Assembly (NCBI GenBank): GCA_964370865.1
Contig: CAYJKF010000001.1
Location: 111,766-175,765 of the forward strand
Direction: 5' to 3'
Source: an uncultured Candidatus Saccharibacteria bacterium
GTDB lineage: Bacteria > Patescibacteriota > WWE3 > 2-01-FULL-39-13
Length of the DNA stretch: 64,000 nucleotides
Shown one piece after another: positions 1,203 through 36,446 of this stretch. Each line of letters begins with the position of its first letter. Positions within the stretch are counted from its first letter, which is position 1. A model generated the notes under the pieces. It worked only from the letters and a program-made list of their open reading frames with translations. It made no database searches and was not told the DNA's origin. The position numbers and the translations under genes were made by a program.

Positions 1203-1565
1203 TTAACTACCATCACCTGCTGAAAAAGGCGGATTAAAATAACTATTATCTCCTTCAGAATAACCTAATAGCTTCAAGACTAGCCCTAAGAAAAAGGTTA
1301 TATATGGTAAAGAAATTAATCCTAATACTGCGAAAACAATATTAGTTAAGCCCTCTCTTAGTTTCGTCATAGCATCTTCACTAGGAGATTTAACTACATT
1401 CATAATCGCCATGAAAACATTATATGCCACGAAAACTAACATAATCGCAAAAAGAAAATAATAAACAACATTTAATCCGACATTAGAAATTTGACCAAAA
1501 GAGGATATGAAATCAGATATATTTGTTGGGTCTGGGATACAATTTTCTACATCAGTACATGCCAT
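1203..1565 (-). CDS. small two-helix membrane protein, VirB2/TrbC-pilin-like paralog (third copy)
   Basis: 120 aa with two hydrophobic helices separated by a short loop SPSEDAMTKLREG. It shares the YxLGWA...F.G...L..L.YKL...EEAM....K..V.GL.SL.LGWL..FVGG pattern with 1570..1929 and 2033..2455. It lies 4 nt downstream of the previous paralog. Confidence 0.45.
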   Translation of the reverse strand: MACTDVENCIPDPTNISDFISSFGQISNVGLNVVYYFLFAIMLVFVAYNVFMAIMNVVKSPSEDAMTKLREGLTNIVFAVLGLISLPYITFFLGLVLKLLGYSEGDNSYFNPPFSAGDGS

Positions 1566-1569
1566 CTTT

Positions 1570-1929
1570 TTATTTCAATAAAGTAGGAATAACAAATTGA
1601 ACATTAACTCCGATTAGTCCTCCAACAAATTGTACTAGCCATCCAAGACTTAATGATAGTAAACCTAATACTACTATTACAACGGCCTTCTTGATACCGT
1701 TACTGAAATCAGCCATTGCTTCCTCGCTATCTGATTGGGATAGTTTGTATACTAGCATCATAAGAGTGTATGCAAGTCCAATAAAGGTTAACGCCCATCC
1801 AAGGTAAGAAAACAAATTCAATAGAAAATTGAAGATAGAATACATGCTATCAACTTGTCCGATTTCTGGTAATACTCCAAGATCCTCCTCGGTTATCGCA
1901 TAAGCTTTCTTCACAATAAAATCCATCAT
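1570..1929 (-). CDS. small two-helix membrane protein, VirB2/TrbC-pilin-like paralog (second copy)
   Basis: 119 aa. The motifs YLGWALTFIGLAYTLMMLVYKLSQSDSEEAMADF and LGLLSLSLGWLVQFVGGLIG align almost position by position with the 2033..2455 product. Confidence 0.5.
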   Translation of the reverse strand: MMDFIVKKAYAITEEDLGVLPEIGQVDSMYSIFNFLLNLFSYLGWALTFIGLAYTLMMLVYKLSQSDSEEAMADFSNGIKKAVVIVVLGLLSLSLGWLVQFVGGLIGVNVQFVIPTLLK

Positions 1930-1943
1930 TATTTATATTCTAG

Positions 1944-1976
1944 CAAAAAAGAACGGGGTGCTAAAGCACCCCGTTC
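1944..1976 (-). terminator. rho-independent terminator after first pilin-like gene
   Basis: Perfect 11-bp GC-rich stem gaacggggtgc/gcaccccgttc (1951-1961/1966-1976) with a 4-nt loop. On the minus strand it is followed by TTTTTT (plus-strand aaaaaa at 1945-1950). It sits between the stop of 2033..2455 and the start of 1570..1929. Confidence 0.6.
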
Positions 1977-2032
1977 TTACTCCAAGATGCACTTTTATAA
2001 CTGCATCCTTCAATACCTAAATCGAGTTGTTA

Positions 2033-2455
2033 CTATCCAACAGCAGACACTGGTACATCTGTGAACGGATCAGTTGGTGTTATTTCGTATCCGAAAATTC
2101 CACCTACGAATGTAATTAACCATCCTAAACTCAAAAGTAACAATCCTGCAATAACAATCAAAACTGCCTTAGTTATATAACCTTGTACAGTCTTCATGGC
2201 CTCTTCATTATCTGCATTAAAAAGTTTATATATTAATGAGAATAAAACGAAACCAATTCCAATAAATACCCCCGCCCATCCAAGATACCTAAAGATATTA
2301 TAAACAAACAACAATATCGTATTAAGACCCTCTAGATCTCCGAAATCATTACTCGCTGAATACTCAGTACCCACTAACTCTTGTGCAAATGAAGGAGTCA
2401 CCAATAAAACAAACATTCCAGTGTACGCTGCTAAAATTCCATATAACTTTTTCAT
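2033..2455 (-). CDS. secreted two-helix membrane protein, VirB2/TrbC-pilin-like (putative major subunit)
   Basis: 140 aa. N-terminal signal-peptide-like segment (MKKLYGILAAYTGMFVLLVTPSFAQ), then two hydrophobic helices flanking NADNEEAMKTVQGY. Strong SD AGGAGGTG sits 4-5 nt upstream of the ATG (reverse complement of 2456-2475), and the gene has its own terminator. Confidence 0.55.
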   Translation of the reverse strand: MKKLYGILAAYTGMFVLLVTPSFAQELVGTEYSASNDFGDLEGLNTILLFVYNIFRYLGWAGVFIGIGFVLFSLIYKLFNADNEEAMKTVQGYITKAVLIVIAGLLLLSLGWLITFVGGIFGYEITPTDPFTDVPVSAVG

Positions 2456-2601
2456 AATTCACCTCCTAAGGTAAAAATATTTTAATAAATATTAACTATT
2501 CAACTGAATAAATTCTATACAATAAACCAGATAAACACAACAAACAAGGCAACAGCAGATAATAGCACAACCAGGGTCAAATTGGTATACTTGTCCTAAT
2601 T

Positions 2602-4470
2602 ATGCCTGCCAATTTACGCTCAAAAATTAATAAAATTTTAGGGAACCTATTAATAGTCTTTTTATTGTTAGCGGGATTTACCTTATTTGCTACAAATACC
2701 CTAGCTGATGAAGCCGAAGATTTAAAAAAAATTGAAGAAGAAATCAAGAAACAAGAAAAAGAGCTTAAAGAAACCGAATCTGAACTTAACAAGGTCCGAG
2801 ATAAATCAAAGCAGATTTCAGATACCCTATCGAAACTCTCTGGTAATTTAAATCTAAATCAATCTCAAATAGACGATCTGCAAAAAAATATAGATGAACT
2901 TACAGTAGATATTAATAATTTAGACAAGAAAATGGGGATAAAAAAGGGCGATTTAGAACAAAATACTAAAATCAGAGATATTGCCCTTAAAGAGCTCTAT
3001 ATAAACAACAAGAAAAATCTTGCAGAAGTAGTTTTAGCCGAATCAGGTGTAAGCCAAATGTTCGAAACAGCAGCTTACTACTTCAATTTTGTGAACAACT
3101 CAGAATCACTAATTAGTCTTATAAATGGGGATATAAAGGGATACGAAGAAGACAAAAACGAAGTCGCCGAGATCAAAGCAAAAATCGAGACTCAAAAAGA
3201 CCAACTTAAAAAAGTAGTTGATCAACTGGCTGCTCAAGTAAATAAATCAAAGACTGACCTAGCCTCAACTGAAAAAGATGCTAATTCACTCGAAGGTGAG
3301 AAACAGAACATTCAAAGAAAACTATCAGAACTATCAGCAAAACAGCAAGCAATTTTAGGTGAGAAGACAGATAGTGGAACATTCACAACGAGTGTAGGAG
3401 ATATCCCTATGACAGGTGAAGCAAGTTCACGCGCTGACTTTAATCCTGGTTTTAAAAAAGCCTTCGCTGGATTCTCTTTTGGCGCACCACATAGAAAAGG
3501 TCTTAGCCAATATGGAGCAAAAGGCCGCGCTGAAGATGGCCAAGATTATAAGGAAATACTCAAAGCATATTATGGTGATATAGAAATTGTTGAAATGAGC
3601 GGACTTCCAAAAAACATATCCACCGATAAGGGTTCGCTAGAATTAGATGGTAAGTATCTAAATGGTCTAGCAGAAATGCCTGCTTCGTGGCATAAAGAAG
3701 CACTAAAAGCTCAAGCAGTCGCAGCAAGAACCTATGCACTTTCATATGTTGGATGGCGAGTCTCCGATAAAGAAGCCAAAAAATCTATTTGTACAACAGA
3801 AAGCTGCCAAGTGTGGTCATCCAGCAAAGCAACTGCTTCATCTGCGGCAAGTTGGCACAAAGCCGTAAGCGACACAAAGTCAGAAGTTATGGTAAGTAAA
3901 AAATCTGGTGATATATTCTCTGCCTTTTATGCAGCTTCATCTGGAGGATATAACTACAGTTATTCTAGTATCGGACACAGTACAAAAGGCGGCTGGGACA
4001 CAGAATGTGGCTCCAAAAACTGCTGGACTAGCGAAGCTTACGAAAGTAAAGGTGGTTCACCCTGGTTTTATAAAGGATGGTATAAATCAAGATCAAATAA
4101 AGCCTGTGGAAGATCTCACCCATGGCTAACCGAAAGTGAATTTGCAGATATAGTAGGAGCAGCTGTTCTCTACACTAAAGATGAAGGAAATGAGGCGCAT
4201 CTATCTCAAATTGATGCACAATCCTGCTGGGGTGAAAGTATAAGTGGAACATGGTCGAGAGATACAGTTAAGGAAAAAACTGGAATAACGAGCGTAGACA
4301 GCGTTTCTGTAAGTTACTCTAACGGTGGAACGACGGCTGAAGTGAAAATAAAAACTAATAAAGGCGAATATAAATTTAGCGGAGAGGACTTTAGAGATAT
4401 ATTTAATCTGAGAGCACCTGGAGTGCTAAATATAAAAAGCGCCTTATACAATATTGAAGTTAAAGATTAA
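2602..4470 (+). CDS. membrane-anchored coiled-coil protein with C-terminal SpoIID/LytB-type domain (peptidoglycan-remodelling)
   Basis: 622 aa. N-terminal TM/signal (ILGNLLIVFLLLAGFTLFA). About 250 aa of heptad-like K/E/L/Q-rich sequence follows. The C-terminal region carries EMPASWHKEALKAQAVAARTYALSY, which I recognise as the conserved SpoIID/LytB signature. Confidence 0.6.
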   Translation: MPANLRSKINKILGNLLIVFLLLAGFTLFATNTLADEAEDLKKIEEEIKKQEKELKETESELNKVRDKSKQISDTLSKLSGNLNLNQSQIDDLQKNIDELTVDINNLDKKMGIKKGDLEQNTKIRDIALKELYINNKKNLAEVVLAESGVSQMFETAAYYFNFVNNSESLISLINGDIKGYEEDKNEVAEIKAKIETQKDQLKKVVDQLAAQVNKSKTDLASTEKDANSLEGEKQNIQRKLSELSAKQQAILGEKTDSGTFTTSVGDIPMTGEASSRADFNPGFKKAFAGFSFGAPHRKGLSQYGAKGRAEDGQDYKEILKAYYGDIEIVEMSGLPKNISTDKGSLELDGKYLNGLAEMPASWHKEALKAQAVAARTYALSYVGWRVSDKEAKKSICTTESCQVWSSSKATASSAASWHKAVSDTKSEVMVSKKSGDIFSAFYAASSGGYNYSYSSIGHSTKGGWDTECGSKNCWTSEAYESKGGSPWFYKGWYKSRSNKACGRSHPWLTESEFADIVGAAVLYTKDEGNEAHLSQIDAQSCWGESISGTWSRDTVKEKTGITSVDSVSVSYSNGGTTAEVKIKTNKGEYKFSGEDFRDIFNLRAPGVLNIKSALYNIEVKD

Positions 4471-4471
4471 T

Positions 4472-5461
4472 CTAAAGTACACCAAACAAATCGGTTACCA
4501 CAATTCTAACAATCACACCTGAAAGAATTATTAAAAATAATCCTTGTATCCAAGACATGAACATATCTTTTCCCTTTTGAATTGTTGCTGGATCACCGCT
4601 AGATAAGTTAAGACCAATTAGTGGAAGCATAAAGAGCGAAGAAACAACACCAAGTCCTATTGCTAAGATATGTGCATTTGATCCAAGTGCAGTAAAACAA
4701 GACTCAATTCCAGCATCTGGACTACAACCCTCAAATAGTCCCCCATCAAATTCAAAACCGGGACCACTTAAGGGATCTCCAGGCACTGGTACATCTGGAT
4801 CACCAGGCGCATCCACTGGGTCGGGATCGCCTTCTATTGGCTCTGGAACATCATCCTCGTCAAGCGGTGCAGTGTAATCGAAGTAGAATGGTTGCAAACC
4901 CAAGGCGTCACCATAAAATATGCTACCATCTCGCGCAGGATCCCTTACTGGCCTTAGATAGGATAAGTTGTAACTAGCATTGTCATTCAGTTCCTGAATC
5001 ATCGCTGTCGGCAATAAAGGGTTTAACGGAATTCTAAGACCTGCACCCGAAAATAATGCATCTAGGGCGGTAGAAAGTTCTGTCGCTTTTGCTTGGGTAA
5101 CTTCAGAAGGTGAATCTACGCCCAACATTTGAGTATATAACAATGCGTTTAGGCTAAAACTAAACATATCCCCTCCTGCAATTGGTACAATTTCTCCGTC
5201 TTGCACTGAATAATCACCAATGACGATAATATAGTCATTTACATAATCACCTGATTCTCCAATTCCATCCCAAGGAATTGGACTATAAGTAAGGGGGTTG
5301 AAAGTAATATCTTTAAGCGTTAAGTACATCATTCCATCCTCTGGGTCCTGTTCGTAACCAATTCCACCAATCAATACGTCATCCTGGGCATATAATGGAC
5401 TTGAAGATAAAAGAAAAAAGAAAATACCAAGTAATCCTAAAATTAATTTGTTTGTTATCAT
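4472..5461 (-). CDS. secreted Asp/Pro-rich protein with C-terminal hydrophobic hairpin
   Basis: 329 aa. Signal peptide ending LYAQ|DD. Acidic proline-rich stretch DPDPVDAPGDPDVPVPGDP. Two C-terminal hydrophobic helices. It is convergent with 2602..4470 with a 1-nt gap. Confidence 0.4.
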   Translation of the reverse strand: MITNKLILGLLGIFFFLLSSSPLYAQDDVLIGGIGYEQDPEDGMMYLTLKDITFNPLTYSPIPWDGIGESGDYVNDYIIVIGDYSVQDGEIVPIAGGDMFSFSLNALLYTQMLGVDSPSEVTQAKATELSTALDALFSGAGLRIPLNPLLPTAMIQELNDNASYNLSYLRPVRDPARDGSIFYGDALGLQPFYFDYTAPLDEDDVPEPIEGDPDPVDAPGDPDVPVPGDPLSGPGFEFDGGLFEGCSPDAGIESCFTALGSNAHILAIGLGVVSSLFMLPLIGLNLSSGDPATIQKGKDMFMSWIQGLFLIILSGVIVRIVVTDLFGVL

Positions 5462-5513
5462 TTACATAAATTTAACAGATAGCATTTAAAACTTCTATGC
5501 TAAAATATTTCTA

Positions 5514-5927
5514 ATGACAAATAGAAACAGTCGATTATTGGTTTTATTCTCAATTGCAAGCGCAGAGATTTCTTTTTTACTACCTCGGTATGCATATGCC
5601 CAAGGATGCCAATACGATTTGGATGGAGATCCCCCTGAATTTGGGCCTTATATAGTTTCGTGTTTCCCTAATGTATGGTCAACGATGAGTACACTTATGA
5701 TTGCAGTCGCAATAGGCAGCGCGATGTTACTTCTTTTTACTACTATTAGAGCAAGAAACAATCCTAAAAATTTAGAAACCATTCCTTCGAGATGGATGAA
5801 TTTGATTTTATTTGCCCTTCTAGCAATTGGAGTAGGGGGAACATTATTGAATTTCTTATTAGGCCTTATTGGAGCTGGAAGAGTTCAAACATACATCGAT
5901 ATGCTAGAAAGTGTTTTAAATCCTTAA
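5514..5927 (+). CDS. small secreted membrane protein (signal peptide + two C-terminal helices)
   Basis: 137 aa. Signal-like N-terminus ending AYAQ|GC, a Cys-containing short domain, then two hydrophobic helices. Its architecture resembles the pilin-like set. Confidence 0.35.
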   Translation: MTNRNSRLLVLFSIASAEISFLLPRYAYAQGCQYDLDGDPPEFGPYIVSCFPNVWSTMSTLMIAVAIGSAMLLLFTTIRARNNPKNLETIPSRWMNLILFALLAIGVGGTLLNFLLGLIGAGRVQTYIDMLESVLNP

Positions 5928-5939
5928 AGAAATTTTATT

Positions 5940-7397
5940 CTATTTTCTCTTTTTTGGTCCTGCATCTTCTCCACCGAATAGGGGTTGAACTCCAAGTAAG
6001 CCATCTACAATTTTTCTAGCATTTCTTGCTTTCCAAATTATAGAAATACCAAGAAGCCCCTTTAGTAATACGAACCAAAATTCTAATGTTGTATTAATTA
6101 TATTAAACCCGCTAAACAAAGACTCGCCACTGACATCAGGAGCTATACTCATAATTCCCAAACCTATGACTACAAGAAGGAGCAATAACGGTAATGCAAT
6201 TACATCTGAAACGATTCTCTTTCCAAGATTCATAGCAAGACCCTGTTTACCAGGTAGAACTGATAATAAACCAACAAATGGCGCAAGAACGATTGTTGAT
6301 ACAAGGGATACAAAAATCTTAATGAAACCCCAAAGCCCCGCAAACATAACTACTACTATACCTACAATTGCGGCGACCAAAAAAAGTGCCATTCCAACAC
6401 CATATACGTGTAATCTACTTATTACTCCTATGGCACTATTTAGTGCTCCAACTGCAATAGTCCATACACTAATATCCTGAACCGTGCCCCCCATAATACT
6501 CACGAGTAAGGTTGCCCCGATCCTTAAAGCAAGACCGAGTAGAGGCGGGATTAATGCAAAAGCAGCACTAATAATCGGATAGGATAATAAAATTATTCCA
6601 AGTCCTAGCGGTATTAATGGAAGTACGGAATAAACTGACACCGTGACTTGAGGAGAAATTTTAGTTCTAAACATAATCATCAAACCTACGAGTGCTAGAG
6701 CTGCTCCGAAAAGTGCCAAAGAAATATTTCGTGTAATTTTCCAAGACTCTAAAACAAACTTCTCAAAGGTAGAACCAAAAAAACCGCTCTGAGCATAGGC
6801 CGGTGTAGTAAAAATTGTATTTCCTAAAGTATCGTCAACATATAAAGCTAAATTTGTAGGAATTGGTGCCGTATTAGGTGAAGTCAAGAAGGCGAGACTA
6901 TTACTACCTATATGCCCCAAGCCGTTAGGAATTCTGACATACTCACCTTTTCCAAGATCATTAAAATTTGTTGCATTTGTCCATGTTGCGGCTGGGTCAA
7001 TACAAACTCCACTTTCTAAAAGCTCTTCCATTGTTTGATCGCATACATGTTGAGTTATATTGTTATAAACCAAATTTTGCATTAAAAATGATTGCCCCCA
7101 CATATTCGCATTTAATTCGCATTGACCATCTGAATCTACAAATTCTTTGAAACCACACCATAGGTTGTATACAGAAGATAATGATCTCCAAGCTTGTACG
7201 CCAGCTGTAACCGGATTGATAGCCTCTGCAGGAGTTGGATCTACTAATGCTCCAACTTGTGCATTTGTGGCATTTGGTTTTAATAGTGCAGACATTAAAA
7301 CAGCAAAAATGAAAATTGATAAGGCAAAGGGGAATACCCTGTCACCAAAGTTTTGTATTTTTCTAATTAATGAGAATAAAGCGACGATAATATTCAT
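5940..7397 (-). CDS. polytopic membrane protein, VirB6/TrbL-like candidate
   Basis: 485 aa. N-terminal signal/TM, a ~180-aa extracytoplasmic region, then at least 6 hydrophobic helices and a basic C-terminal tail (KKRK). The call rests on topology and genomic context only. Confidence 0.4.
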   Translation of the reverse strand: MNIIVALFSLIRKIQNFGDRVFPFALSIFIFAVLMSALLKPNATNAQVGALVDPTPAEAINPVTAGVQAWRSLSSVYNLWCGFKEFVDSDGQCELNANMWGQSFLMQNLVYNNITQHVCDQTMEELLESGVCIDPAATWTNATNFNDLGKGEYVRIPNGLGHIGSNSLAFLTSPNTAPIPTNLALYVDDTLGNTIFTTPAYAQSGFFGSTFEKFVLESWKITRNISLALFGAALALVGLMIMFRTKISPQVTVSVYSVLPLIPLGLGIILLSYPIISAAFALIPPLLGLALRIGATLLVSIMGGTVQDISVWTIAVGALNSAIGVISRLHVYGVGMALFLVAAIVGIVVVMFAGLWGFIKIFVSLVSTIVLAPFVGLLSVLPGKQGLAMNLGKRIVSDVIALPLLLLLVVIGLGIMSIAPDVSGESLFSGFNIINTTLEFWFVLLKGLLGISIIWKARNARKIVDGLLGVQPLFGGEDAGPKKRK

Positions 7398-7496
7398 AAA
7401 TATAATTAAAGTTATTCTACAAAATATAGAAACTAATACAAGCTATATAAATATCATTAACTACGTTTTTTTTGGTAGACTTTACTAAATTAATTT

Positions 7497-10400
7497 ATGC
7501 CACCAAAAAAGTTCGAGAAACCAGTCACATTTTCTGGATGGGTTGAAGATATATTTAATCTTCCTAAAGAAGTAACTAACCAGACATTCGGAGTAATAAA
7601 AACAAAACACCAAGAATATTTGGTATGGGTAGCTAAAGCTCGTGCCTCGGATGCTGATTATGCTGAAGCAGATTTAATTCGAGCTTTTACTGAAGGTGCA
7701 GAAGCTTTATCAGATTTACAGGGTATAAATACAACTATTAAAGTTAATGAACTATACGCGAAACCTATCAATACTATTAAAGCTCTGGGACAAAGCACTC
7801 TTAAACAATTGACTGACATGGATGATCTCGCTGGTTATCGACGTGCTGATGCAATCGCTAGGTTAACCAAGGGGCAAGTTACAGACGGACGAGGTAACAT
7901 ACCAAACAGCAGATATATTGATGTTGGTCGGTCAATCAATAATCCTCAAAATTTGATCTTAAAGGGACTAACTACTTCTAGAATAATTCCTCTAAAGCCT
8001 GACGCACTAGTAGAAACCACTCCTAGTGGAAAACTGCGATCAACCATGCAACTTGTAAAAGACGTAACGGAAGGAAAAGATCCAGCAGGTGTTGGAGATT
8101 GGGAAGATCGAAAAGTTGTGGAGGATGGTGTCGGCAGGGATCAACAACATAAACCGTATTTACAACTTTCCGGAGCGTTTTCGCAAATGGCAATGGGTCT
8201 TGAGTCCTATGGCTCAAGGTTAAGTCCAAAAATTACAGTTAATACCCAATACGGTCGCGCACTTGCACAAGAAGTAGGAATTGACCTGGAAAAGGTTTTA
8301 AACGGATCAAGAGGCGGATTGAAAGCCAGTTATGACCTAGACATTAAAGATGCAGTAAGCGGAAGACCAAAATTCCTAAAAGATAATAGACTCAAAAAGA
8401 GTGGAGCAGTAACAATAGGTTCTCTGCATCTCACACTAGCAGACGATGCTGGCGGTGATATTCGGAAATTATTATCCGATGACAATTTAATAGCTAAAGC
8501 ATTATCGATTAGCCCTACTGAATACACAAGTATGAGTGGTGAAGTCAAAGAATTCTTCAAAAACTTTTTAGAAAACGAAGAAATTCAGATTCGTTCCGGT
8601 TATTTAAATCCAAGGGGCGAACTTGGTGAAGAAATAAAAGCAAAATGGAATAATGCGGGACTCGTTCCCTCTCTAGAAGGCGAAATATACACTGGTGCAG
8701 GTGCTGCTTATATTAAGAATGACTTATATCATCTATCGAATGCAAAAAGTACAAAACAGTATCTATTAGGTGATGCGTCGCAAAAACAAATTAAAGCTGA
8801 GGCCTTAAAATCTTTGAAAAAAAAATACGGACATGACGCAAAGCTATTAACAGAAAAGACCGAAGAATTTTATGACAGATTGGCTGCGTTAAATGAAGCT
8901 ACGGTATCTGCCAACACCTTATTCGCCTCTGCAACAGTTAAAGATGCACTTAAAGCTATAAAAGATGGCGATTTTATTAAAGCAGCAATCGTCAATACAA
9001 GATTGCTGGGAATGATTCCGTTTTCAAACAAAAAGATGAGATCTCCAATCGAGTGGGCTGAAATTCTTATGCCTGATAGTGCACAAGATATCATCAATAA
9101 GGGAATAAATAGACTAACTAAACCGAAAATCGATGAGTTAAAGAGATTAGCATCAAGTACGACAGATCCGGTAATTCAACAAAGATACCTTAATCAAATT
9201 AAGAATCTAGAAGGTCTGAAAAACTGGATTAATCCAATTACAATTGCCAAGAAAGTTAGCGATACCGCACAGACAGCCATTGGTATTAAGGTAAAAGGAA
9301 GTCAATTAAACGCTGCACAAAAATTGATAAATGAGCAGACCGGACTGTTCAACTCAACTGTCTTCCTGGAATGGAGACAAAGAGATCCCGTATCCATGCA
9401 AAACGCTAAACGCTACACCATGACGCGAGTAAGTTCAAAAGATGCACAAGGCTTATATGGTAAATTTGGGGTTTTTAGTATTTTTGAAGACATAGAAGCA
9501 GCAAATTTATTCGCACATCCAAGCCTATCTGGCCTCCCATATATACATGATATGCAAACGATGTTTACTGATTTATCAAACATCGATGCATTCTATGCGG
9601 AATTAGCTCGAGTTCAGAGCCATTTAAAAGCGGGGACTCCAATACCTGCGGATTTATTAGATTTTTATAACAACGTCGTAGTACCAATGAATTTCCACGA
9701 GGCATTAGGAGGTGCGGGGGAGTTTGTCATCGACAAGGTAATGGATGGATACAATCAATATAAAGTATCAGGCAAAGTTTTACTTAATAAAATATCTGAT
9801 GACGCGAAAATGGGAGTTGGCAAATTGCATGCCATTGACAGGTGGCAATTTTTAAAAACCTTCAAAGGAAGTGGCCGTGCATCACAACTAAATGATTTAT
9901 ATACAGGCTGGTTAACAAAATATAACCGCTATGCCAACTTCTTCAATGATTACATCCAAAAAAATATTATATTTGGCGATGTACTACTTGGTGTACCTAT
10001 CTTGGGAAAACTTTTTGCTCCTATTCAGGCAGTCTTACGTACGATTGGATTTAGCGAGGAAGTTACAATTGCGGCAACTGTGAGACAGTGGAAATGGGTT
10101 CAACGGCTAATCGGAACAGGAGAAAAAGCGTCGAACATAGGGGGATCACTTTCGGCACGAAGCAGTGGTTCATTATTTGTTAAATCAAGATTTTTAAGGA
10201 ATTTAACATCAAAGTTAACAGGAAAATTTGCTGGCACAGCATTAAAAGGATTAGGATTTGCACTTAAAGGTTTAACCTCTGTAATAACTGGTGGTGTAGC
10301 TTTTGTAGTTTCCACTCTCGGTACGATGGCGTTCAGTGCCAGTTTAAAACTTATTAGAGGTGATGTAAAAGGCGCAAAAATCGCGATTAAAGATGAATTT

Positions 10401-11438
10401 AAAGGATTAGTAAAAGTAGCAAAAATTGTCGTCGGTTATCCTCTTCTTGGGTTTTGTGGCTGCATTATTATTCCAATCGTAGGTATTGCCTTTGCCGTAA
10501 TCGCGATTATGGTACCAGGTTCCATGGCGCCATTTGAAGAAGTTGGTGAAGCCGTAAATGTCGGATCGGCTCTCAGTCAATCCGACTTACTACAAGTTAA
10601 TAAATCAGCAACACTTAGCGGCGACAATACTCAAATAAACTACACAGTTGTAATTACGAATATACACACACCGACTGAACCAGATGATACAGGTGAAGTT
10701 ACAATCCAACAGATTAGTGATGTCTCGTCAATGATTTTAGGATGCGACGAACCTAATGGCGGTACTTCACACAGATATGGAGATGCTGGCTTCATAGGAA
10801 ACTACGATGCTGGTTATAATTTCAACCAATATACTGGCCATGTTTTAGCAACAGGTGAAAGCTTAACCATTACTTATACTCTTTCGAATATTACAGACAA
10901 AGATGCAACGTATAATAACAATATTAACGTCCACGAATCTAGAGAAAAAATAGCTGGAAAATATGCCATCGCGAATTCAACAACAAACATAGGTAACGGG
11001 GGGTGTAATACATGTCCTAGCGGGTGGCCTGTCACTGGTGCGGTTAATATAACTAATAGGCCTGGAGAAAGTTGGACACACAGAGGTCTTTGGCCTCATT
11101 CAATAGATTTGTCACTTGTTGAAGGAACTGAAATTTATGCCACCCATAGCGGAACCGTAGCAACCTCAAATACTGGTAACTTCGGTTATGGTACACATAT
11201 TTATCTCACCTCACCGATGGGGTTTACTAGTATTTATGGACATCTTAGCGGTTTCGCGGTAGAAAACGGAGCGACTGTTCAGGCTGGAGATTTAATCGGC
11301 TATTCTGGTGATACCGGTAACTCATCCGGTCCGCATCTGCACTATGAATTCAGAATCGGGGGCTATTGCCAAGGTCAACCACTTAAGATGAAACCACCTT
11401 TCACGCCATATTATGTACCTTATGATCCGTCGTATTAG
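7497..11438 (+). CDS. giant (1313 aa) protein with central TM hairpins and C-terminal M23/LytM peptidase domain (cell-wall hydrolase)
   Basis: The C-terminus has the M23 signatures HRGLWPHSIDL (HxxxD) and GDTGNSSGPHLHYEF (HxH), flanked by glycine-rich beta segments. Residues ~870-1000 contain several hydrophobic helices (VAFVVSTLGTMAFSASL, LLGFCGCIIIPIVGIAFAVIAIMV). The N-terminal 850 aa are predicted helical and non-secreted. Confidence 0.65.
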   Translation: MPPKKFEKPVTFSGWVEDIFNLPKEVTNQTFGVIKTKHQEYLVWVAKARASDADYAEADLIRAFTEGAEALSDLQGINTTIKVNELYAKPINTIKALGQSTLKQLTDMDDLAGYRRADAIARLTKGQVTDGRGNIPNSRYIDVGRSINNPQNLILKGLTTSRIIPLKPDALVETTPSGKLRSTMQLVKDVTEGKDPAGVGDWEDRKVVEDGVGRDQQHKPYLQLSGAFSQMAMGLESYGSRLSPKITVNTQYGRALAQEVGIDLEKVLNGSRGGLKASYDLDIKDAVSGRPKFLKDNRLKKSGAVTIGSLHLTLADDAGGDIRKLLSDDNLIAKALSISPTEYTSMSGEVKEFFKNFLENEEIQIRSGYLNPRGELGEEIKAKWNNAGLVPSLEGEIYTGAGAAYIKNDLYHLSNAKSTKQYLLGDASQKQIKAEALKSLKKKYGHDAKLLTEKTEEFYDRLAALNEATVSANTLFASATVKDALKAIKDGDFIKAAIVNTRLLGMIPFSNKKMRSPIEWAEILMPDSAQDIINKGINRLTKPKIDELKRLASSTTDPVIQQRYLNQIKNLEGLKNWINPITIAKKVSDTAQTAIGIKVKGSQLNAAQKLINEQTGLFNSTVFLEWRQRDPVSMQNAKRYTMTRVSSKDAQGLYGKFGVFSIFEDIEAANLFAHPSLSGLPYIHDMQTMFTDLSNIDAFYAELARVQSHLKAGTPIPADLLDFYNNVVVPMNFHEALGGAGEFVIDKVMDGYNQYKVSGKVLLNKISDDAKMGVGKLHAIDRWQFLKTFKGSGRASQLNDLYTGWLTKYNRYANFFNDYIQKNIIFGDVLLGVPILGKLFAPIQAVLRTIGFSEEVTIAATVRQWKWVQRLIGTGEKASNIGGSLSARSSGSLFVKSRFLRNLTSKLTGKFAGTALKGLGFALKGLTSVITGGVAFVVSTLGTMAFSASLKLIRGDVKGAKIAIKDEFKGLVKVAKIVVGYPLLGFCGCIIIPIVGIAFAVIAIMVPGSMAPFEEVGEAVNVGSALSQSDLLQVNKSATLSGDNTQINYTVVITNIHTPTEPDDTGEVTIQQISDVSSMILGCDEPNGGTSHRYGDAGFIGNYDAGYNFNQYTGHVLATGESLTITYTLSNITDKDATYNNNINVHESREKIAGKYAIANSTTNIGNGGCNTCPSGWPVTGAVNITNRPGESWTHRGLWPHSIDLSLVEGTEIYATHSGTVATSNTGNFGYGTHIYLTSPMGFTSIYGHLSGFAVENGATVQAGDLIGYSGDTGNSSGPHLHYEFRIGGYCQGQPLKMKPPFTPYYVPYDPSY

Positions 11439-11457
11439 TGTTGTAAAATAAGTTAAA

Positions 11458-12489
11458 ATGATTAGTATAAAACCTTTGATAGAAAAAAATAAAAAAATAG
11501 CCATATTAATTCTAGTTTTATTTTTGGGTGGTTTAATTTATTATCTATTTTCGAGCGGTATATTTTTAGGTCCTGGACCAGGTACAAGTGTCATTGACCT
11601 TTCTACACCAAGTATTAATGTAGCTGGAAACCAAGAAAGTAAATATAAGATAGAAAGATCTCTTTATTTCAAAGTTACGAATCCGCACGGCGGTGAAATA
11701 CTTCCAATTTATAAATATAACAAAAATGATTTAACTACTGATGAGCAGTTAATAGGAAAAATAGCCGAAGAAGTTGGACTCACCAAAAAAAAAGAAATTA
11801 ATTCAGTTGGACAAGGAACTGTCCTTGTTTTGCATTCAGAAGATAGTGCAAGGGGTATCACATTAAATAAACAAAACAACGTTCTAACTTATAGTAATAT
11901 CAGCTACGACAAAGCTATACATTTTAAAACCAACGATCAAATCGAAAAGGCTCGTAATTCAGCAGAAAGTTTTTTGAAGGAATTAAACCTCTGGAGTGAA
12001 AATTATAGTCTAATTGGCGCTCTATATAGAGATGATAAAATATCTTCTCAACAGCCAGAAACTTCAACCCCACTAAATCAGTCTACAACTGTAGAATTTT
12101 TATTTGAAAATAAAATTGATGGCTATGAAGTATCTACTCTACCCTATTCGGTTCAAGGTGATTATATTAATATCGCGGTATCCGCTGATAATTACACCAT
12201 CACAAAAATTCAATTAGTAATTTCAGGTGAAATTTCAAGTGAACAAGGCAAGGTAAAGATTATTTCATTAAATGACCTTATTAGAGATATAGATAATGGA
12301 AACCTAAAATTAATAGATACGTTAGCAGAACCTGATGCGGTATTTGACAGAATCGTTGTGTCGGAAGCTACTATCTTTTATTATGCACTTGATGGTCAAA
12401 TAGTTCCTGCATATAGAATTACAGGAACAGCAACTGACCAACGAGGGCAAGCATCGCCTGTTTATTTTATCGCCAATGCTTTCAAATAA
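11458..12489 (+). CDS. bitopic membrane protein (N-terminal TM, extracytoplasmic domain); VirB8/PrgL-like candidate
   Basis: 343 aa with a single N-terminal helix IAILILVLFLGGLIYYLF, then a soluble domain. The VirB8-like call is based on size, topology and neighbourhood only. Confidence 0.35.
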   Translation: MISIKPLIEKNKKIAILILVLFLGGLIYYLFSSGIFLGPGPGTSVIDLSTPSINVAGNQESKYKIERSLYFKVTNPHGGEILPIYKYNKNDLTTDEQLIGKIAEEVGLTKKKEINSVGQGTVLVLHSEDSARGITLNKQNNVLTYSNISYDKAIHFKTNDQIEKARNSAESFLKELNLWSENYSLIGALYRDDKISSQQPETSTPLNQSTTVEFLFENKIDGYEVSTLPYSVQGDYINIAVSADNYTITKIQLVISGEISSEQGKVKIISLNDLIRDIDNGNLKLIDTLAEPDAVFDRIVVSEATIFYYALDGQIVPAYRITGTATDQRGQASPVYFIANAFK

Positions 12490-15400
12490 AATAGTTTATA
12501 AAATAATATTGGTTGCATTAATCCCTGTTGTGGTAATGGCAATTTTTGCAAATAGAAAAACCGAAAAAGTGTGCGCACAAGTTGAGGGCTTTGACCCAGC
12601 AAGCGCATTCGCAGAATGTATAGGACCGGAACTTGCAGCATACATGCTAGCAATATTAGATGCACAAGCTGCTGGATTAATTCCTTCTAATATCAAACTA
12701 CTATCTCCAGCCTTTAATATGACTTCGAGTACTCTTAATCCTATTGTTGGTGCTGTAAACGAAGCAGCTCCAGGAATCTTTAATCATCCAAATTTAGTTG
12801 GAATTGCAGGTAATATATATGACACTAGTGGTGGAAATTCTATGGGAGATTACTGGTCGAACCAAAATATTAACGGGCTATTTGGAAATATCCCAATTTA
12901 TATTACTGAAACAGGAAATACTGAAAATAGCGGACTATCAAACAGACAAACTGCAGATAATATTGCCGCATTACTGCAAAGCAATCCTAACATTCAAAAT
13001 ATTTCGCTATTTGTTCCAACCGGAAGTAATCCCGCGTATGGTCATCATTCGTGGTCTCAAGACGAAATAAATTATCTTTGCAGCATAACTAACGGGTGCG
13101 AAAAAATTGGTATTAATTATGGAACGTATTTTGGTGGAAATGATTATCACGATGTTAATAACTACAATATGAATTCAGGACTGCAAATCGCCGACATGGG
13201 AAGTATTCCAAGTATTATAGAGGCAGTAAACAATTCTAACGGGGATGTAATTGTAAGAATTGGAGTTGGATCAAGTTCAGGAGGATTTGATACTCCACAA
13301 GCTTATATAAAGTTTCTTAAAGAATTGGGTGACAGTTTACCCCCTGGAGCTAGCGTATTTGCTATTGCTGGTCCAAACGAACCGGATTTAGAGGGCTGGT
13401 TAAGTCCAGAATGCATGAACCTCTTACCTATTAATCCAGCTGACATGTTATGTGGAGGACGAATTGATGAAAAACCCGTGGGTTATCGAGGTGAGGTCGT
13501 TGGACATAATGGTGAAATTCCATGGAGTATCAATTCTAACTTACATCAACAGAAAGATCTTATAGGTGGAACGGTTGAAGGTCAATTAGCATCAACCCTC
13601 CAAGCAGAATTTATAATAAGAGTCCCGCCAAATACTTTTAGACACAATGATTTTAGAGTCGTATCCGATCAAATGGTAGGTTCATTAGATCCAGATGATC
13701 CAAACAATCTCTATTTCGAAGATCGGTTGAGAGACGAAGATGGATTTATAAGTCCACTGAAAGCAAATATGCCTATTTTCAACTCAGCCTTACCTGGAGT
13801 AAAAATTCCGAGTAGTTATTCAGTTGGCATAAATGAGACCTTTCAGTTTGCAGAGTCAAATGAGACACCTGAAGCATATTTAGAGAGAATTTTCAAAAAA
13901 ACTCCTGAACCTGGAGATGGACGTAAACCAGAATTCGGATGGCTCACAGAAATGCCAGCAATGGTTTTTCGAGCATGTATTCAACGGTCTGCCTGCAACC
14001 TTGGTGTAGAAGAATGTTTGAGGGCAGACGGAAGCGGTGAGCTATGCGATGGGAGCGATGATGCTGAGGATTGTAGACCATTTGGACGAACTTTTAATTT
14101 GACTGGCAGGATTGGCCATCGAGAACCTACTGAACTTCACTCGATTTCAAGAAGTTTTGAATTGCAAAAGAGACAACTTGTAGATAGACCAGGCGAACCA
14201 ACTAGTTTCGGAGCTGTTGTAACACAAGAAGATTTGTCTAGATCAACCTATGTCTTTAAAGATCCTGATTTAAATGAGTTAGCGGATGGTATGAAATATA
14301 TTCAAGAGATAAGTCAAAATAGAAATACAAACTATAAAACCTCAAGTGGAAAAGAAGTAACAGTTGCCAACACTAATAATGGTTCTTTAATCAAACCTGC
14401 AGTGGCAAATGCTCAAGGTGATCCAATGGCTCAACCACAAGGGTCACTCGGTGTTGTTGTTATCGAGTTAGGAGGCAATCAGGTTCAAATAGACTATGAA
14501 ACATGTGTTTGGCATCAACTTGGATCTGCTTGTGCAATTCGAGATGTTAGTACAACAATTAATGGACAAGGAACTTTTAACTATATACCAGTTACTCAAG
14601 CAAATATACCAAGGTGTCTAAAACCAAGCTGGGGAAATGCTCCAGTTATTACAGCAGATCTTGCACCAGGAACTTGTACAACACTAAGTGTTCACACAAG
14701 AGGTGGTAGAGTTGGTCCAGAAGGTTGTAGCGATACCTATCAAGACTCCTGCGAAATTTGTAGAGCAAATGATGGAACGATAACTCAAACCTGTGGAATA
14801 ATTCCTCCACCACCACCCGTTGATTGTAGTCAATGTGCAAGTTGGGCACCCAGTTGGCTATGCGCACCAATTATCGCAGACCCCTTACCCGAAGAAACCG
14901 AGTGTGCAGATGGAGCATGTACCTCAAGCGGAAAAATAAGCATAGAAAAAGAGATTCCATGGCAGGATGATGATGATGACCCCGATGATATAAATGATTG
15001 GATTATAAACTGGCTCGATCGACTTAGAGAAGGGGATTTTACCTGGCTAAGTGGACTCTTGGCTGGACTTTTAGAGACAGAAAGAACTGGCGTTAGATGC
15101 GATATCGACTATTCTCTTCCTTCAGAGTCCCCGGGAGGTATTCGTTTCCCAATAGGAATTGAATGTTGGTTTGGATCGCGAGATTATTTAGTATATGCAT
15201 ATCCAATAACATATATTGGCGACTTTGGTGAGAGAACGGTCGATATGTCTATAAACAATGCTATGTTCAGATTAAGTAACAAAACTGACCAATATTTTTG
15301 GCCACAAAGTACAAAAGCACCAGTAACCTTAAAGCTATCGTTAAGAGATCCAACAATTGATGACGAAACCGTAAGATTTGAGGTCCCAAATGGATCCGAA

Positions 15401-16027
15401 CGAGGCTTTGAAATTGGCGCACAAAATACGTTTTATTTAGGACTTAATGACTCTGGTGAAAGAACCATGTTTGTTGAGTATTACTACTTTATGCAACCAC
15501 AGACGAGTGGACAGTGTTTAAAACAGCGTTTCTTATCTCAACCGATTCCTTTGCCTGGCGGAGGAACCGGAGTTCCACTAAGTCATAATACGCTTTGCGG
15601 TTCTCAGGATTTTTGGACTTCTGGCATTACTAGTGGCGACACTACTTCAGCAGTGGATCAAAGAATGATGGCAGCCGTAGAACAAATAGAACAAAATCTA
15701 CTTGCTACTACTGATAGCCAAGATAAAGTTGCCGCTGAAATAAATTTAGATCAAGATATAGTTCCTCAAATTCGAAAATTATATGAACAAGATAAGCATG
15801 CAGATTATGCTGGTAGCAAAATTATGTCGAACATGACATTATCAGAAGTTGAAAATCTTCAAAATCAATTTCTTTCTGAATTTGAAATCATCCTAAATAA
15901 ATACTTCATGTCGAGTGGTAAAGGAGTTTTTAAGGATATAAACGATACACCCGAAAGCATGGAGAAAGAACTAGATGCCTTAGTTAGAAAATACGATAAT
16001 CGGGTTAGCGCTATCGTGAATAACTAA
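12476..16027 (+). CDS. giant (1183 aa) secreted Cys-rich surface protein
   Basis: N-terminal TM/signal (IILVALIPVVVMAIF). A Cys-dense segment CSDTYQDSCEICRANDG...CGIIPPPPPVDCSQCASWAPSWLCAP, an acidic DDDDDPDD run, and no catalytic motif I can place. The start overlaps the previous gene by 14 nt. Confidence 0.5.
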   Translation: MLSNKIVYKIILVALIPVVVMAIFANRKTEKVCAQVEGFDPASAFAECIGPELAAYMLAILDAQAAGLIPSNIKLLSPAFNMTSSTLNPIVGAVNEAAPGIFNHPNLVGIAGNIYDTSGGNSMGDYWSNQNINGLFGNIPIYITETGNTENSGLSNRQTADNIAALLQSNPNIQNISLFVPTGSNPAYGHHSWSQDEINYLCSITNGCEKIGINYGTYFGGNDYHDVNNYNMNSGLQIADMGSIPSIIEAVNNSNGDVIVRIGVGSSSGGFDTPQAYIKFLKELGDSLPPGASVFAIAGPNEPDLEGWLSPECMNLLPINPADMLCGGRIDEKPVGYRGEVVGHNGEIPWSINSNLHQQKDLIGGTVEGQLASTLQAEFIIRVPPNTFRHNDFRVVSDQMVGSLDPDDPNNLYFEDRLRDEDGFISPLKANMPIFNSALPGVKIPSSYSVGINETFQFAESNETPEAYLERIFKKTPEPGDGRKPEFGWLTEMPAMVFRACIQRSACNLGVEECLRADGSGELCDGSDDAEDCRPFGRTFNLTGRIGHREPTELHSISRSFELQKRQLVDRPGEPTSFGAVVTQEDLSRSTYVFKDPDLNELADGMKYIQEISQNRNTNYKTSSGKEVTVANTNNGSLIKPAVANAQGDPMAQPQGSLGVVVIELGGNQVQIDYETCVWHQLGSACAIRDVSTTINGQGTFNYIPVTQANIPRCLKPSWGNAPVITADLAPGTCTTLSVHTRGGRVGPEGCSDTYQDSCEICRANDGTITQTCGIIPPPPPVDCSQCASWAPSWLCAPIIADPLPEETECADGACTSSGKISIEKEIPWQDDDDDPDDINDWIINWLDRLREGDFTWLSGLLAGLLETERTGVRCDIDYSLPSESPGGIRFPIGIECWFGSRDYLVYAYPITYIGDFGERTVDMSINNAMFRLSNKTDQYFWPQSTKAPVTLKLSLRDPTIDDETVRFEVPNGSERGFEIGAQNTFYLGLNDSGERTMFVEYYYFMQPQTSGQCLKQRFLSQPIPLPGGGTGVPLSHNTLCGSQDFWTSGITSGDTTSAVDQRMMAAVEQIEQNLLATTDSQDKVAAEINLDQDIVPQIRKLYEQDKHADYAGSKIMSNMTLSEVENLQNQFLSEFEIILNKYFMSSGKGVFKDINDTPESMEKELDALVRKYDNRVSAIVNN

Positions 16028-32829: not shown

Positions 32830-34074
32830 ATGGAGAATCCTGCCAATGAGCAATTAAACACCCAAGAAGTCAACAATTCAGAATTCGCACAGAAAGAGCC
32901 ACTTGTTTATAAAAAAACTATAAAAAAATATGCAATGATCGCGGTGAGTGGCTTATTAGGACTGGCCATAATAATTACTGCTGTCGTTATCTATATGCGT
33001 TTTATGGATAGATTTAATGTGACGGAACCAACTCCACCGGTGACACCAACACCAACTCCTGAAATACCAAAAGCAGCATCGCCATTAATCGCCTATATTA
33101 AAAATGATAAATCAATTTGGATTGTAAACACTGATGGAACTGATAAAAAAGTATTGCTCGAACTGCCTGGATCATCGGATCAGTTCTTCTCGGATCTGAC
33201 TTGGAAAAGCAAAGGGTTTCTATCTTATTCACTCTGTGACACAAATCCAAATTGTACTGTGGAGACTTATAATTTAGAGACAAAGTCTTCTGTAACAGAA
33301 ATTAATAATTCAGAAGAAGGATTTGTGGAGTCATTAACTTGGGCACCTGAAAATAAATTCATCGGGTATTTTCAATACAAAGACCAAGGATCTCAGAACC
33401 AAACGGTGGAACTAAGACTTAAGACTGGAACAACCAATACTGTTTTATCAACACATAAAACAGAAATAAAAGATATCGAACAAGTCTCAAAAGTAACTTT
33501 CTCAGAAGACGAGGATCATATAGCCTTTGGTTTTGTAGAATTAGTTGCTTCAACAAGAGGCCGGACTATTACATATACAGCAAAACCTAAAATCTTAGTA
33601 TATAGAGTAAGCGGAGTATTGTTGGATACAATCAGCGATGCCAAAGACCCGATGTTCATAGACGAAAAAACCATCGCATATCAAAAGGGAGCACAGCTCA
33701 TACATAGGGAAATTGGGACATTATCAGAAACAGCTATTACTCCAATAACAGGATTCAACTTAGATGTTTCTCCTGACAAAAGTAAGTATGCATATTGGAG
33801 CCCTACAGGTGGATTCTCAGATGCTTTATTAATTATTTTTGATGGAAACCTAAACCTTCAAAGGAATATATTAAGAGGCGTCCTATTTCCACAGTGGATA
33901 AGCAACTCTACCGTTGTTGGGATAAAAGCTGATAACTGTTTAGGTTCAAAATGTGAATTATTCGATTATCAAACCATTAGTTTAGCTACCGTTAACATCG
34001 AAACAAAACAAGCAAATCCAATTGATCAAGGTCGCACTATTAAAGATGTTGAAGTAAATTACTATGCCAATTAA
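32830..34074 (+). CDS. membrane-anchored hypothetical protein with Pro/Thr linker and beta-rich extracytoplasmic domain
   Basis: 414 aa. TM helix IAVSGLLGLAIIITAVVIYM, linker TEPTPPVTPTPTPEIP, then a repetitive beta-strand-like domain. The stop overlaps the next gene's start by 11 nt. Confidence 0.4.
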   Translation: MENPANEQLNTQEVNNSEFAQKEPLVYKKTIKKYAMIAVSGLLGLAIIITAVVIYMRFMDRFNVTEPTPPVTPTPTPEIPKAASPLIAYIKNDKSIWIVNTDGTDKKVLLELPGSSDQFFSDLTWKSKGFLSYSLCDTNPNCTVETYNLETKSSVTEINNSEEGFVESLTWAPENKFIGYFQYKDQGSQNQTVELRLKTGTTNTVLSTHKTEIKDIEQVSKVTFSEDEDHIAFGFVELVASTRGRTITYTAKPKILVYRVSGVLLDTISDAKDPMFIDEKTIAYQKGAQLIHREIGTLSETAITPITGFNLDVSPDKSKYAYWSPTGGFSDALLIIFDGNLNLQRNILRGVLFPQWISNSTVVGIKADNCLGSKCELFDYQTISLATVNIETKQANPIDQGRTIKDVEVNYYAN

Positions 34075-36442: not shown

Positions 36443-36446
36443 AAAT

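Follow-up and report, generated by a model that had tools for sequence, protein, structure and literature searches.

Type IV secretion systems (T4SSs) that are chromosomal, bear pilins and lack a relaxase have already been published for Patescibacteria: in Nanosynbacter lyticus TM7x (McLean et al. 2020, PMC7427843), in Southlakia epibionticum ML1 (Wang et al. 2023, PMC10633639), in a survey of the phylum (Quinonero-Coronel et al. 2025, PMC12102498) and in a review (2025, PMC12857230). The S. epibionticum cluster SEML1_0005-0019 encodes PrgI and VirB4 together with pilins, a VirB6 recognizable from structure only, an NTF2-like protein and proteins of lysozyme and peptidase type (PMC10633639); the pilin arrays of such systems are described as essential. 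The survey, which counted components within +/-20 coding sequences (CDS) of virB4, reports arrays of 2-11 VirB2 genes that share little identity with one another, along with occasional M23 substitutes for VirB1 and scarce VirB8 (PMC12102498). The T4SS is among the few machines shown to be essential for epibiotic life in Patescibacteria. Here we describe such a system in a 64,000-nt stretch of contig CAYJKF010000001.1 (the window; the wider genome is ~0.57 Mb, a 571-kb contig). With a probability of about 0.85, positions 1203-16027, termed Locus A, encode the membrane and extracytoplasmic half of a Patescibacteria-type T4SS that is chromosomal and related to the monoderm MPF_FATA conjugation machinery. 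This reading draws on gene content and homologies, on a VirB6-like fold, and on synteny with other genomes and physical linkage there.

An original prediction, made from the letters of the window alone, had placed a monoderm-type T4SS envelope apparatus in 1203-16027. That core reading stands, but the apparatus is incomplete there, its VirB3/TrsD/VirB4 module lying at 34064-38561. The accompanying claim that the component set is undescribed does not survive the four publications on pilin-bearing, relaxase-less systems cited above: Locus A is a rediscovery of a known Patescibacteria T4SS type, and its new details are incremental. What appears to be undescribed is the split into two loci beyond the +/-20-CDS range, the 485-aa polytopic and 343-aa bitopic families as conserved virB4-linked candidates for a divergent VirB6 and VirB8, a link to SpoIID (unmentioned in PMC12102498 and in the ten top-ranked papers of a literature search) and two circularly permuted domains, one of SpoIID type and one glycosidase-like.

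Comparison with described systems

Like the S. epibionticum and TM7x clusters, the window system is chromosomal and combines VirB4, PrgI with a small protein between the two, a divergent PF18895/VirB2-like pilin array, a candidate VirB6-like polytopic protein recognizable by structure only and large wall hydrolases of peptidase or lysozyme type, with no relaxase or coupling protein in the cluster. It departs from them in being split into two loci 18 kb apart, in the length of its VirB6-like protein (485 aa against 1088 aa), in assigning glycan cleavage to a putative permuted SpoIID on a coiled-coil stalk where those systems have a lysozyme-like protein, and in possessing both an M23 protein with a ~820-aa N-terminal domain and no signal peptide and a giant Cys-rich protein with a domain resembling glycoside hydrolase (GH) clan A. 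VirB4, PrgI, TrsD and a near absence of relaxases are likewise the marks of the MPF_FATA-related clade of Patescibacteria (Quinonero-Coronel et al. 2025, PMC12102498; PMC12857230). Unlike the components counted in that survey, most Locus A genes, the whole pilin array included, are over 20 genes away from virB4; the Pfam and NCBIfam models used also miss the pilins, the polytopic protein and the 343-aa protein. Hidden Markov model (HMM) surveys confined to the virB4 neighbourhood can miss half the machine.

With the T4SSs that serve conjugation in Gram-positive bacteria (pCF10 Prg/Pcf, pIP501 Tra and C. difficile CTn2 'CD1110') the window system shares the VirB4 family, PrgI/VirB3, TrsD, dedicated multi-domain wall hydrolases (the role of PrgK, TraG and TcpG) and the lack of an outer-membrane core. 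Those systems, however, have a type IV coupling protein (T4CP), a relaxase and surface adhesins, are devoid of VirB2 pilins and reside on mobile elements, the window being the opposite on coupling protein, relaxase, pilins and location; their hydrolases are of SLT/CHAP type, as against SpoIID/M23 here. The combination that defines a conjugative MPF_FATA system, a VirD4/TcpA-type coupling protein with a MOB relaxase on a mobile element, is absent from the window. So is the VirB7/VirB9/VirB10 core with VirB11 that defines diderm VirB/D4 (MPF_T) systems, for which no Pfam or NCBIfam match was found among the window proteins scanned.

A probable single secretion system in two loci

Locus A contains ten open reading frames (ORFs), all found at the coordinates and strands given below, in transcription units that alternate in strand: three small genes (-), 622 aa (+), 329 aa (-), 137 aa (+), 485 aa (-) and an operon of 1313, 343 and 1183 aa (+). 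TM denotes transmembrane.

1203..1565, minus strand: pilin-like gene 3, 120 aa; family A1; no signal peptide, N-terminal C-x5-C
1570..1929, minus strand: pilin-like gene 2, 119 aa; family A1
1949..1978, minus strand: terminator-like hairpin between pilin genes 1 and 2; 13-bp stem with 8 GC pairs, T tail
2033..2455, minus strand: pilin-like gene 1, 140 aa; Sec signal peptide and helical hairpin; family A1; orthologues in L001, L002 and L008-L011
2602..4470, plus strand: 622-aa membrane-anchored coiled-coil protein with a SpoIID/LytB-type lytic transglycosylase domain (PF08486, TIGR02669)
4472..5461, minus strand: 329-aa secreted protein; ~230-aa N-terminal ectodomain, acidic Pro-rich linker, C-terminal T4SS_pilin hairpin
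5514..5927, plus strand: 137-aa pilin-like protein; signal peptide, Cys pair, two TM helices
5940..7397, minus strand: VirB6-like polytopic membrane protein, 485 aa; ~7-8 hydrophobic segments, Foldseek match to VirB6
7497..11438, plus strand: 1313-aa protein; ~820-aa N-terminal soluble domain, three TM segments, extracellular region, M23 metallopeptidase
11458..12489, plus strand: 343-aa bitopic protein at the VirB8 position, by size, topology and place beside the M23 gene
12476..16027, plus strand: 1183-aa secreted Cys-rich protein; 28 Cys, single N-terminal TM/signal anchor, GH-clan-A-like domain at residues ~43-325

The second locus holds three genes.

34064..35746, plus strand: PrgI/VirB3-like protein, 560 aa; PF12666 (E=1e-7), C-terminal CarboxypepD_reg PF13620 (E=1.3e-7)
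35747..36442, plus strand: TrsD/TraC-like protein, 231 aa; 44% identity (E=3e-63) to an L006 protein annotated PF26593 TraC-like
36447..38561, plus strand: VirB4-type ATPase, 704 aa; PF19044 (E=3.5e-30), AAA_10 PF12846 (E=5.5e-10), Walker A AKSGSGKS

The ATPase is the single T4SS-type P-loop ATPase returned by a Walker-A scan of the window, and the PrgI/VirB3-like and TrsD/TraC-like genes lie directly upstream of it. The 231-aa protein corresponds to the TrsD-type component described in Patescibacteria (PMC12102498), and the 560-aa protein is 30-43% identical to the PrgI protein of L006, a distant genome. The 12 best plasmid matches of VirB4 that were listed all come from Bacillota or Actinomycetota (29-37% identity), three of them annotated 'VirB4-like conjugal transfer ATPase, CD1110 family'. 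Placement of this VirB4 in the monophyletic Patescibacteria clade is putative, the evidence being its nearest neighbours, namely 72 metagenomic TrsD-anchored relatives together with the monoderm plasmid matches.

The presence of this module in the window and the linkage of the Locus A families to it in metagenomic loci indicate that a single T4SS is divided between Locus A and the 34-38.5-kb locus, its two halves 18 kb apart. L006 has the parts in one cluster, in which seven genes for PF18895 pilins are joined by a 485-aa protein homologue (phmmer E=1.2e-14), PrgI with a CarboxypepD_reg domain, a TraC-like protein and VirB4. Searching metagenomes with the TrsD-like protein as seed gave 72 loci, annotated by HMMs built from the window families, 29 of them at least 12 kb long; a VirB4 ORF is found in 59 of the 72, including every long one, and the full trio of PrgI, TrsD-like protein and VirB4 in 29/29 long loci. 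Around this core the polytopic 485-aa family recurs within 10 kb of the TrsD-like anchor in 15/29 (E=1e-24 to 1e-72), pilin arrays in seven, and proteins with the architecture of the 1313-aa protein (a long soluble N-terminal domain that lacks a signal peptide, then TM segments in mid-protein, and an M23 domain at the C terminus; TM-M23) also in seven. The 343-aa family is present in 7/29 long loci (10/72 overall), mostly directly beside the M23 gene. L066 has the full order, which runs from five pilins through a secreted protein of 942 aa, the polytopic protein and a minus-strand protein of 769 aa to PrgI, TrsD, VirB4, TM-M23 and the 343-aa family. In the distant locus L046 a SpoIID-like ORF is divergent from a pilin array.

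These linkages bear directly on whether Locus A could instead be a general wall-remodelling or division cluster that lies near small membrane proteins and is functionally untied to VirB4. SpoIID and M23 are ordinary wall-remodelling families, the distance to virB4 is 18 kb, and the halves are apart in the closest relatives too. Against this, TM-M23 proteins stand immediately beside virB4 in L041, L044, L065, L066 and L069, as does the 343-aa family in other lineages; the polytopic family, with its VirB6-like model, keeps close to the TrsD-like anchor in about half of the long loci, and the small proteins group with the T4SS_pilin superfamily, so that we consider an unconnected wall cluster very improbable. 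In the closest relatives, L015-L017, the 10 kb around the TrsD-like anchor beside virB4 contain none of the Locus A genes, which makes the split arrangement a feature of the window's lineage.

Directly upstream of PrgI, a gene at 32830-34074 (+) encodes a 414-aa TM protein with weak beta-propeller (WD40-like) matches; it overlaps the PrgI start codon by 11 nt and is kept in this place in the closest relatives L013-L019, on which grounds it is probably co-transcribed with the VirB4 module. Elsewhere, the VirB4 gene of L006 (20265-21602) carries an intein (PF14890 Intein_splicing, LAGLIDADG endonuclease), and the VirB4 of L070 is 1398 aa long.

Chromosomal location and inheritance

Locus A is chromosomal and vertically inherited. 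As a check proposed with the original prediction bears out, its gene order is conserved, being syntenic in six other genomes at protein identities of 28-90%, and the block is therefore not a chance assembly; conserved neighbours across genomes are an RNase H, a 241-aa gene and a polytopic 361/496-aa gene. A genome scan with an 8-sequence alignment recovered only five species. The interval between the two loci is occupied by housekeeping genes, with Pfam matches to a class-I aminoacyl-tRNA synthetase, an FtsJ-like methyltransferase, a solute-binding protein and a family-2 glycosyltransferase, and with others, such as GroES/GroEL, recognized from their translations alone. No att-like direct repeats flank Locus A, no tRNA gene lies at its borders, and no relatives were found in IMG/VR, among GenBank phages or in the PLSDB plasmids; these observations, with the interleaved housekeeping genes and the synteny, underlie the assignment. 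As originally predicted, Pfam scans and the Walker-A scan detect no VirD4, relaxase, integrase or Rep in the 64-kb window, and plasmid transfer, already thought unlikely, remains so with no relaxase or coupling protein nearby.

Several of the same data concern the idea that the two loci belong to an integrated conjugative element, as its transfer module or as what decay has left of it, with DNA conjugation past or present. VirB4 is 31-37% identical to the VirB4 of conjugative plasmids from Bacillota and Actinomycetota, the PrgI and TraC-like families stem from conjugation systems, and a T4CP or relaxase could lie beyond the 64-kb window (PMC12102498). An element of this kind is nevertheless very unlikely given 64 kb with no integrase, relaxase, T4CP or Rep, the lack of flanking tRNA genes and direct repeats, the interleaving of housekeeping genes, a synteny that extends to the neighbours across genomes diverged to 28% identity, a polytopic 485-aa protein for which no plasmid relatives were found, and a GC content of Locus A near that of the remaining window.

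A prophage tail or lysis module, in which the M23 protein would be a tail-associated lysin and the hairpin proteins holins, has negligible probability. Among PHROG families the M23 domain does match those of tape-measure proteins and endolysins, and the coiled coil matches spanin-like ones, yet PHROG matches end with these generic M23 and coiled-coil regions, the other eight proteins having none. The window contains no capsid, terminase or integrase gene, and the lack of viral or phage relatives in IMG/VR and GenBank answers the original concern that the block might be conserved inside prophages.

Pilin-like genes

Pfam, NCBIfam and PHROGs searches with the ten Locus A proteins matched only SpoIID, M23 and coiled-coil models as clear families. 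The three tandem small proteins have no Pfam match at E<=0.1; the third has weak NCBIfam matches to transmembrane and conjugal transfer families of a Mycoplasma integrative and conjugative element (E=0.016), and its C-x5-C is kept in all orthologues of that subfamily. The one Pfam pilin match among the five candidates is that of the 329-aa protein to PF18895 (E=0.018, residues 264-320). In profile-profile comparison, family A1 (the three tandem proteins and orthologues) aligns by hhalign with family A2 (eight proteins of related loci with precomputed PF18895 T4SS_pilin matches) at 90% probability and E=1.5e-6 over the whole two-helix hairpin. Family A8 (the C-terminal 90 residues of the 329-aa protein) reaches 97% (E=1.2e-10) and family A7 (the 137-aa protein) 88% (E=3.3e-6). 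Reversed A2 scores below 1% (0.7% for A1, 0.3% for A7) and the polytopic family 2%. Some orthologues of the 329-aa protein consist of the pilin only (L002, 119 aa; L009, 126 aa).

By this measure Locus A holds five VirB2/T4SS_pilin-like genes, and it is through profile-profile comparison only that the array matches the PF18895/PF04956 families. The original prediction of three tandem VirB2-pilin-like two-helix proteins was thus right as to hairpins and pilin likeness and short in its count, having overlooked the C terminus of the 329-aa protein and the 137-aa protein. The terminator-like hairpin right after gene 1 suggests that the 140-aa protein may be the major VirB2-like pilin, expressed more highly than its neighbours.

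Holins were considered for the small proteins and rejected, as they have no PHROG match and a specific similarity to T4SS pilins.

VirB6-like and VirB8-position proteins

The 485-aa family has no sequence similarity to TrbL, VirB6 or PrgH in Pfam or the PDB, even with profiles, and ten metagenomic homologues searched against Pfam gave no TrbL or VirB6 match. An AlphaFold2 model built from 14 sequences has a predicted local distance difference test (pLDDT) score of 56 overall and ~70-80 in its helical core (residues 210-470). Foldseek with this model against the full PDB returns VirB6 chains as all of its top nine matches (E=8e-4 to 0.26), followed by noise. The best structural matches are R388/pKM101 VirB6 (TrwI) and Legionella DotA, from which the protein differs in sequence (10-17% identity, no sequence-profile similarity); of the R388-type partners VirB5, VirB7, VirB9 and VirB10, none is present in the window. 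The VirB6-like role foreseen for this polytopic protein is a candidate assignment, supported by the predicted fold and by gene context, and not by sequence.

For the 343-aa protein no match was found in Pfam, NCBIfam or the PDB, even with a 7-sequence profile, and AlphaFold, with a shallow alignment of two close homologues, gave a pLDDT of 36.5 and no usable NTF2 readout. It is a candidate VirB8-like protein only by size, by topology and by a conserved place next to the M23 gene and virB4. Word-indexed homologue searches yielded few relatives (14, 19 and 2), and sequence and profile searches of the PDB with the pilins, the 485-aa and 343-aa proteins, the N terminus of the 1313-aa protein and the GH-like domain produced nothing significant.

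Wall enzymes

The SpoIID/LytB enzyme with a coiled-coil stalk is borne out: the 622-aa protein has an N-terminal TM anchor, a ~230-aa coiled coil (DUF7491) and then a SpoIID domain that scores above cut-off with both PF08486 (E=8.9e-19) and TIGR02669 (E=1.5e-31), and its orthologues at the same position are 59-95% identical. This domain (window 3433-4416, residues 278-605) is circularly permuted relative to the SpoIID proteins of C. difficile and B. anthracis (PDB 5i1t/5txu/4rwr). Residues 278-331 correspond to the C-terminal GHGxGxSQxGA...YY segment of SpoIID (274-328), residues 351-420 to its N-terminal catalytic segment (68-141) and residues 571-605 to SpoIID 243-273. Members of the family are recognized by a catalytic Glu within a '(G/A)EM...EALKAQ(A/S)VAARTY' stretch. 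The 622-aa protein keeps the corresponding '(A/G)EM...EALKAQAVAARTY' catalytic stretch ('AEM...EALKAQAVAARTY' in the alignment to 5i1t), whose Glu we take to be the catalytic residue in the solved SpoIID enzymes.

The 1313-aa protein ends, as anticipated, in an M23 peptidase (PF01551, E=3.8e-23), in which the HxH, the catalytic His and the H...D pair are kept in six orthologues. Its ~820-aa N-terminal domain is presumably cytoplasmic. Neither this domain nor the C-terminal ~850 residues of the 1183-aa protein showed homology to the large proteins of other T4SS clusters.

A glycosidase-like head on the 1183-aa protein

An exhaustive HMMER search with the 1183-aa protein found 176 relatives, most of which share only residues ~43-325. 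This ~280-aa domain (window 12602-13450) is complete in 128 of the 150 representative proteins listed, usually right after the signal peptide, and its T-E-x-G and G-P-N-E-P-x-x-E-x-W motifs, invariant among relatives, read as the nucleophile and acid/base signatures of GH clan A, the 4/7 superfamily of (beta/alpha)8 barrels. The order of the motifs in the window protein is the reverse of the canonical one, which relatives P0065 and P0143 retain, so that the permutation would be a natural one. PF11790 (Glyco_hydro_cc) matches three of 40 full-length relatives (best 2e-6) and, with domain-only sequences, 7/16 at E<=1 (best 9e-4), the window domain itself giving a weak E=0.17; motif matches to GH1 and GH5 are also weak. 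Residues ~43-325 thus resemble, by motif and profile, a circularly permuted glycosidase domain of GH clan A.

Elsewhere the domain is joined to M23, C39-like peptidase, SLT lysozyme, GDSL and GH28/GH42 domains, a typical envelope-degrading toolkit. Giant secreted proteins bearing GH domains also occur in other T4SS clusters, as the 942-aa protein of L066 (PF00150, E=2.5e-5) and a 1350-aa protein directly after virB4 in L056, and orthologues of the 1183-aa protein retain the body while swapping the N-terminal head. The original description as a Cys-rich secreted adhesin candidate holds for the 28 Cys and the secretion anchor; the GH-like head points away from a plain adhesin and towards a surface protein that bears an enzyme. 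The recurrence of SpoIID, TM-anchored M23 and GH-A-like heads offers concrete candidates for breaching the envelope of the epibiont or of its host.

A variant contig of the same organism (L086, 1390-4922) carries the 1183-aa gene as two ORFs (191 + 952 aa), with the break inside the GH-like domain, and the same split is seen in P0043 and P0047; this is either a disruption at the population level or an assembly error.

Proposed mechanism and role

Assembly order, the choice of wall to be opened (that of the epibiont or that of its host), substrate and transport direction are all inferred, by analogy. The five VirB2-like pilins would enter the membrane, in most cases through Sec. Docked by PrgI and helped by the TrsD-like protein, VirB4 would extract and polymerize them on the VirB6-like 485-aa platform, as in R388, in which VirB6 forms the base of the stalk and the site of pilus assembly (PMC9259494). 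The SpoIID-type transglycosylase, on its stalk of ~230 residues, and the M23 endopeptidase, both tethered to the membrane, would open the peptidoglycan locally for the structure to cross the wall. The 343-aa bitopic protein, mostly paired with the M23 protein, may fill the place of the VirB8-like scaffold of Gram-positive systems, and, at the cell surface or the host interface, the 1183-aa protein would display a large Cys-rich body with a head of glycosidase-like type.

Most likely, the machine would mediate interaction with a host cell, through pilus contact plus export of proteins or enzymes, or as a conduit, rather than plasmid conjugation. This follows from the lack of a coupling protein and relaxase here and from the homologous T4SS of S. 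epibionticum, which is essential for epibiotic growth (PMC10633639) in a way that uptake through ComEC does not explain. In that organism competence needs type IV pili and ComEC, and deletion of comEC abolishes competence with viability unaffected (PMC12857230).

The same genetics bear on a T4SS-like DNA-uptake machine akin to Helicobacter ComB, importing host DNA for nucleotides, a role that the original prediction had listed. In its favour, a relaxase and T4CP are absent here, Patescibacteria lack nucleotide synthesis, and T4SS loci of class ABY1 adjoin comF, recG and radA (PMC12102498). The dispensability of comEC beside an essential T4SS, with competence assigned to type IV pili and ComEC (PMC12857230, PMC10633639), weakens this idea, and no com genes lie beside either locus; we regard DNA uptake as unlikely.

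Some points weigh against a Patescibacteria-type T4SS as the identity of the two loci. The three small proteins and the polytopic protein fall below the threshold of every curated T4SS model, and their assignment is made from profile-profile comparison, a model of medium confidence and gene context; a VirB8-like fold for the 343-aa protein is a candidate assignment. The nearest relatives keep the halves apart, and the two loci are at most presumed to be co-regulated. A coupling protein or relaxase could sit elsewhere in the ~0.57-Mb genome, most T4CP homologues of Patescibacteria being far from virB4 (PMC12102498). The expression and function of both loci are predictions from the genes alone.

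A more specific version of the Patescibacteria T4SS is tentative and, in our judgement, doubtful: the accessory set (stalked SpoIID, TM-M23 with the 343-aa protein, and the GH-headed giant) might be a module for breaching the host envelope, with the T4SS as a conduit for feeding or penetration, and the 485-aa and 343-aa families might supply the VirB6 and VirB8 that are 'missing' from those Patescibacteria lineages in which HMM surveys find none. Such a conduit would functionally recall the SpoIIQ(M23)-SpoIIIA 'feeding tube' of sporulation, which also works alongside SpoIID.

Neighbouring genes

The pilin array is bordered by a polytopic protein encoded at 96-1181 (+), which runs left past the window and measures 496 aa in the full contig. 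It holds the same position in L008 and L011, and a PMT_2-type glycosyltransferase takes its place in L001; a role in glycosylation of pilins or envelope is only a guess. On the other flank of Locus A, 17263-19944 (+) encodes an 893-aa DUF4012 protein. Proteins of ~1000 aa that join an epimerase to DUF4012 lie directly upstream of PrgI-TrsD-VirB4 in L027, L028, L034, L035 and L080, and the DUF4012 protein may be a further T4SS-linked envelope component or mere conserved synteny.

Between the two loci, 24992-26230 (-) encodes a 412-aa secreted protein with PEGA and SH3 domains; the S. epibionticum T4SS cluster starts with an essential exported PEGA-domain protein, SEML1_0005 (PMC10633639). A 1029-aa membrane-anchored surface protein at 60890-63979 (-), which has a GH16-like segment and a Thr-Pro linker as well as a CarboxypepD_reg-like domain, is another candidate for host interaction. 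Adjoining the VirB4 locus, 39048-40359 (-) encodes an AdoMet decarboxylase along with a branched-chain polyamine synthase of BpsA type, polyamine synthesis being unusual for a reduced genome.

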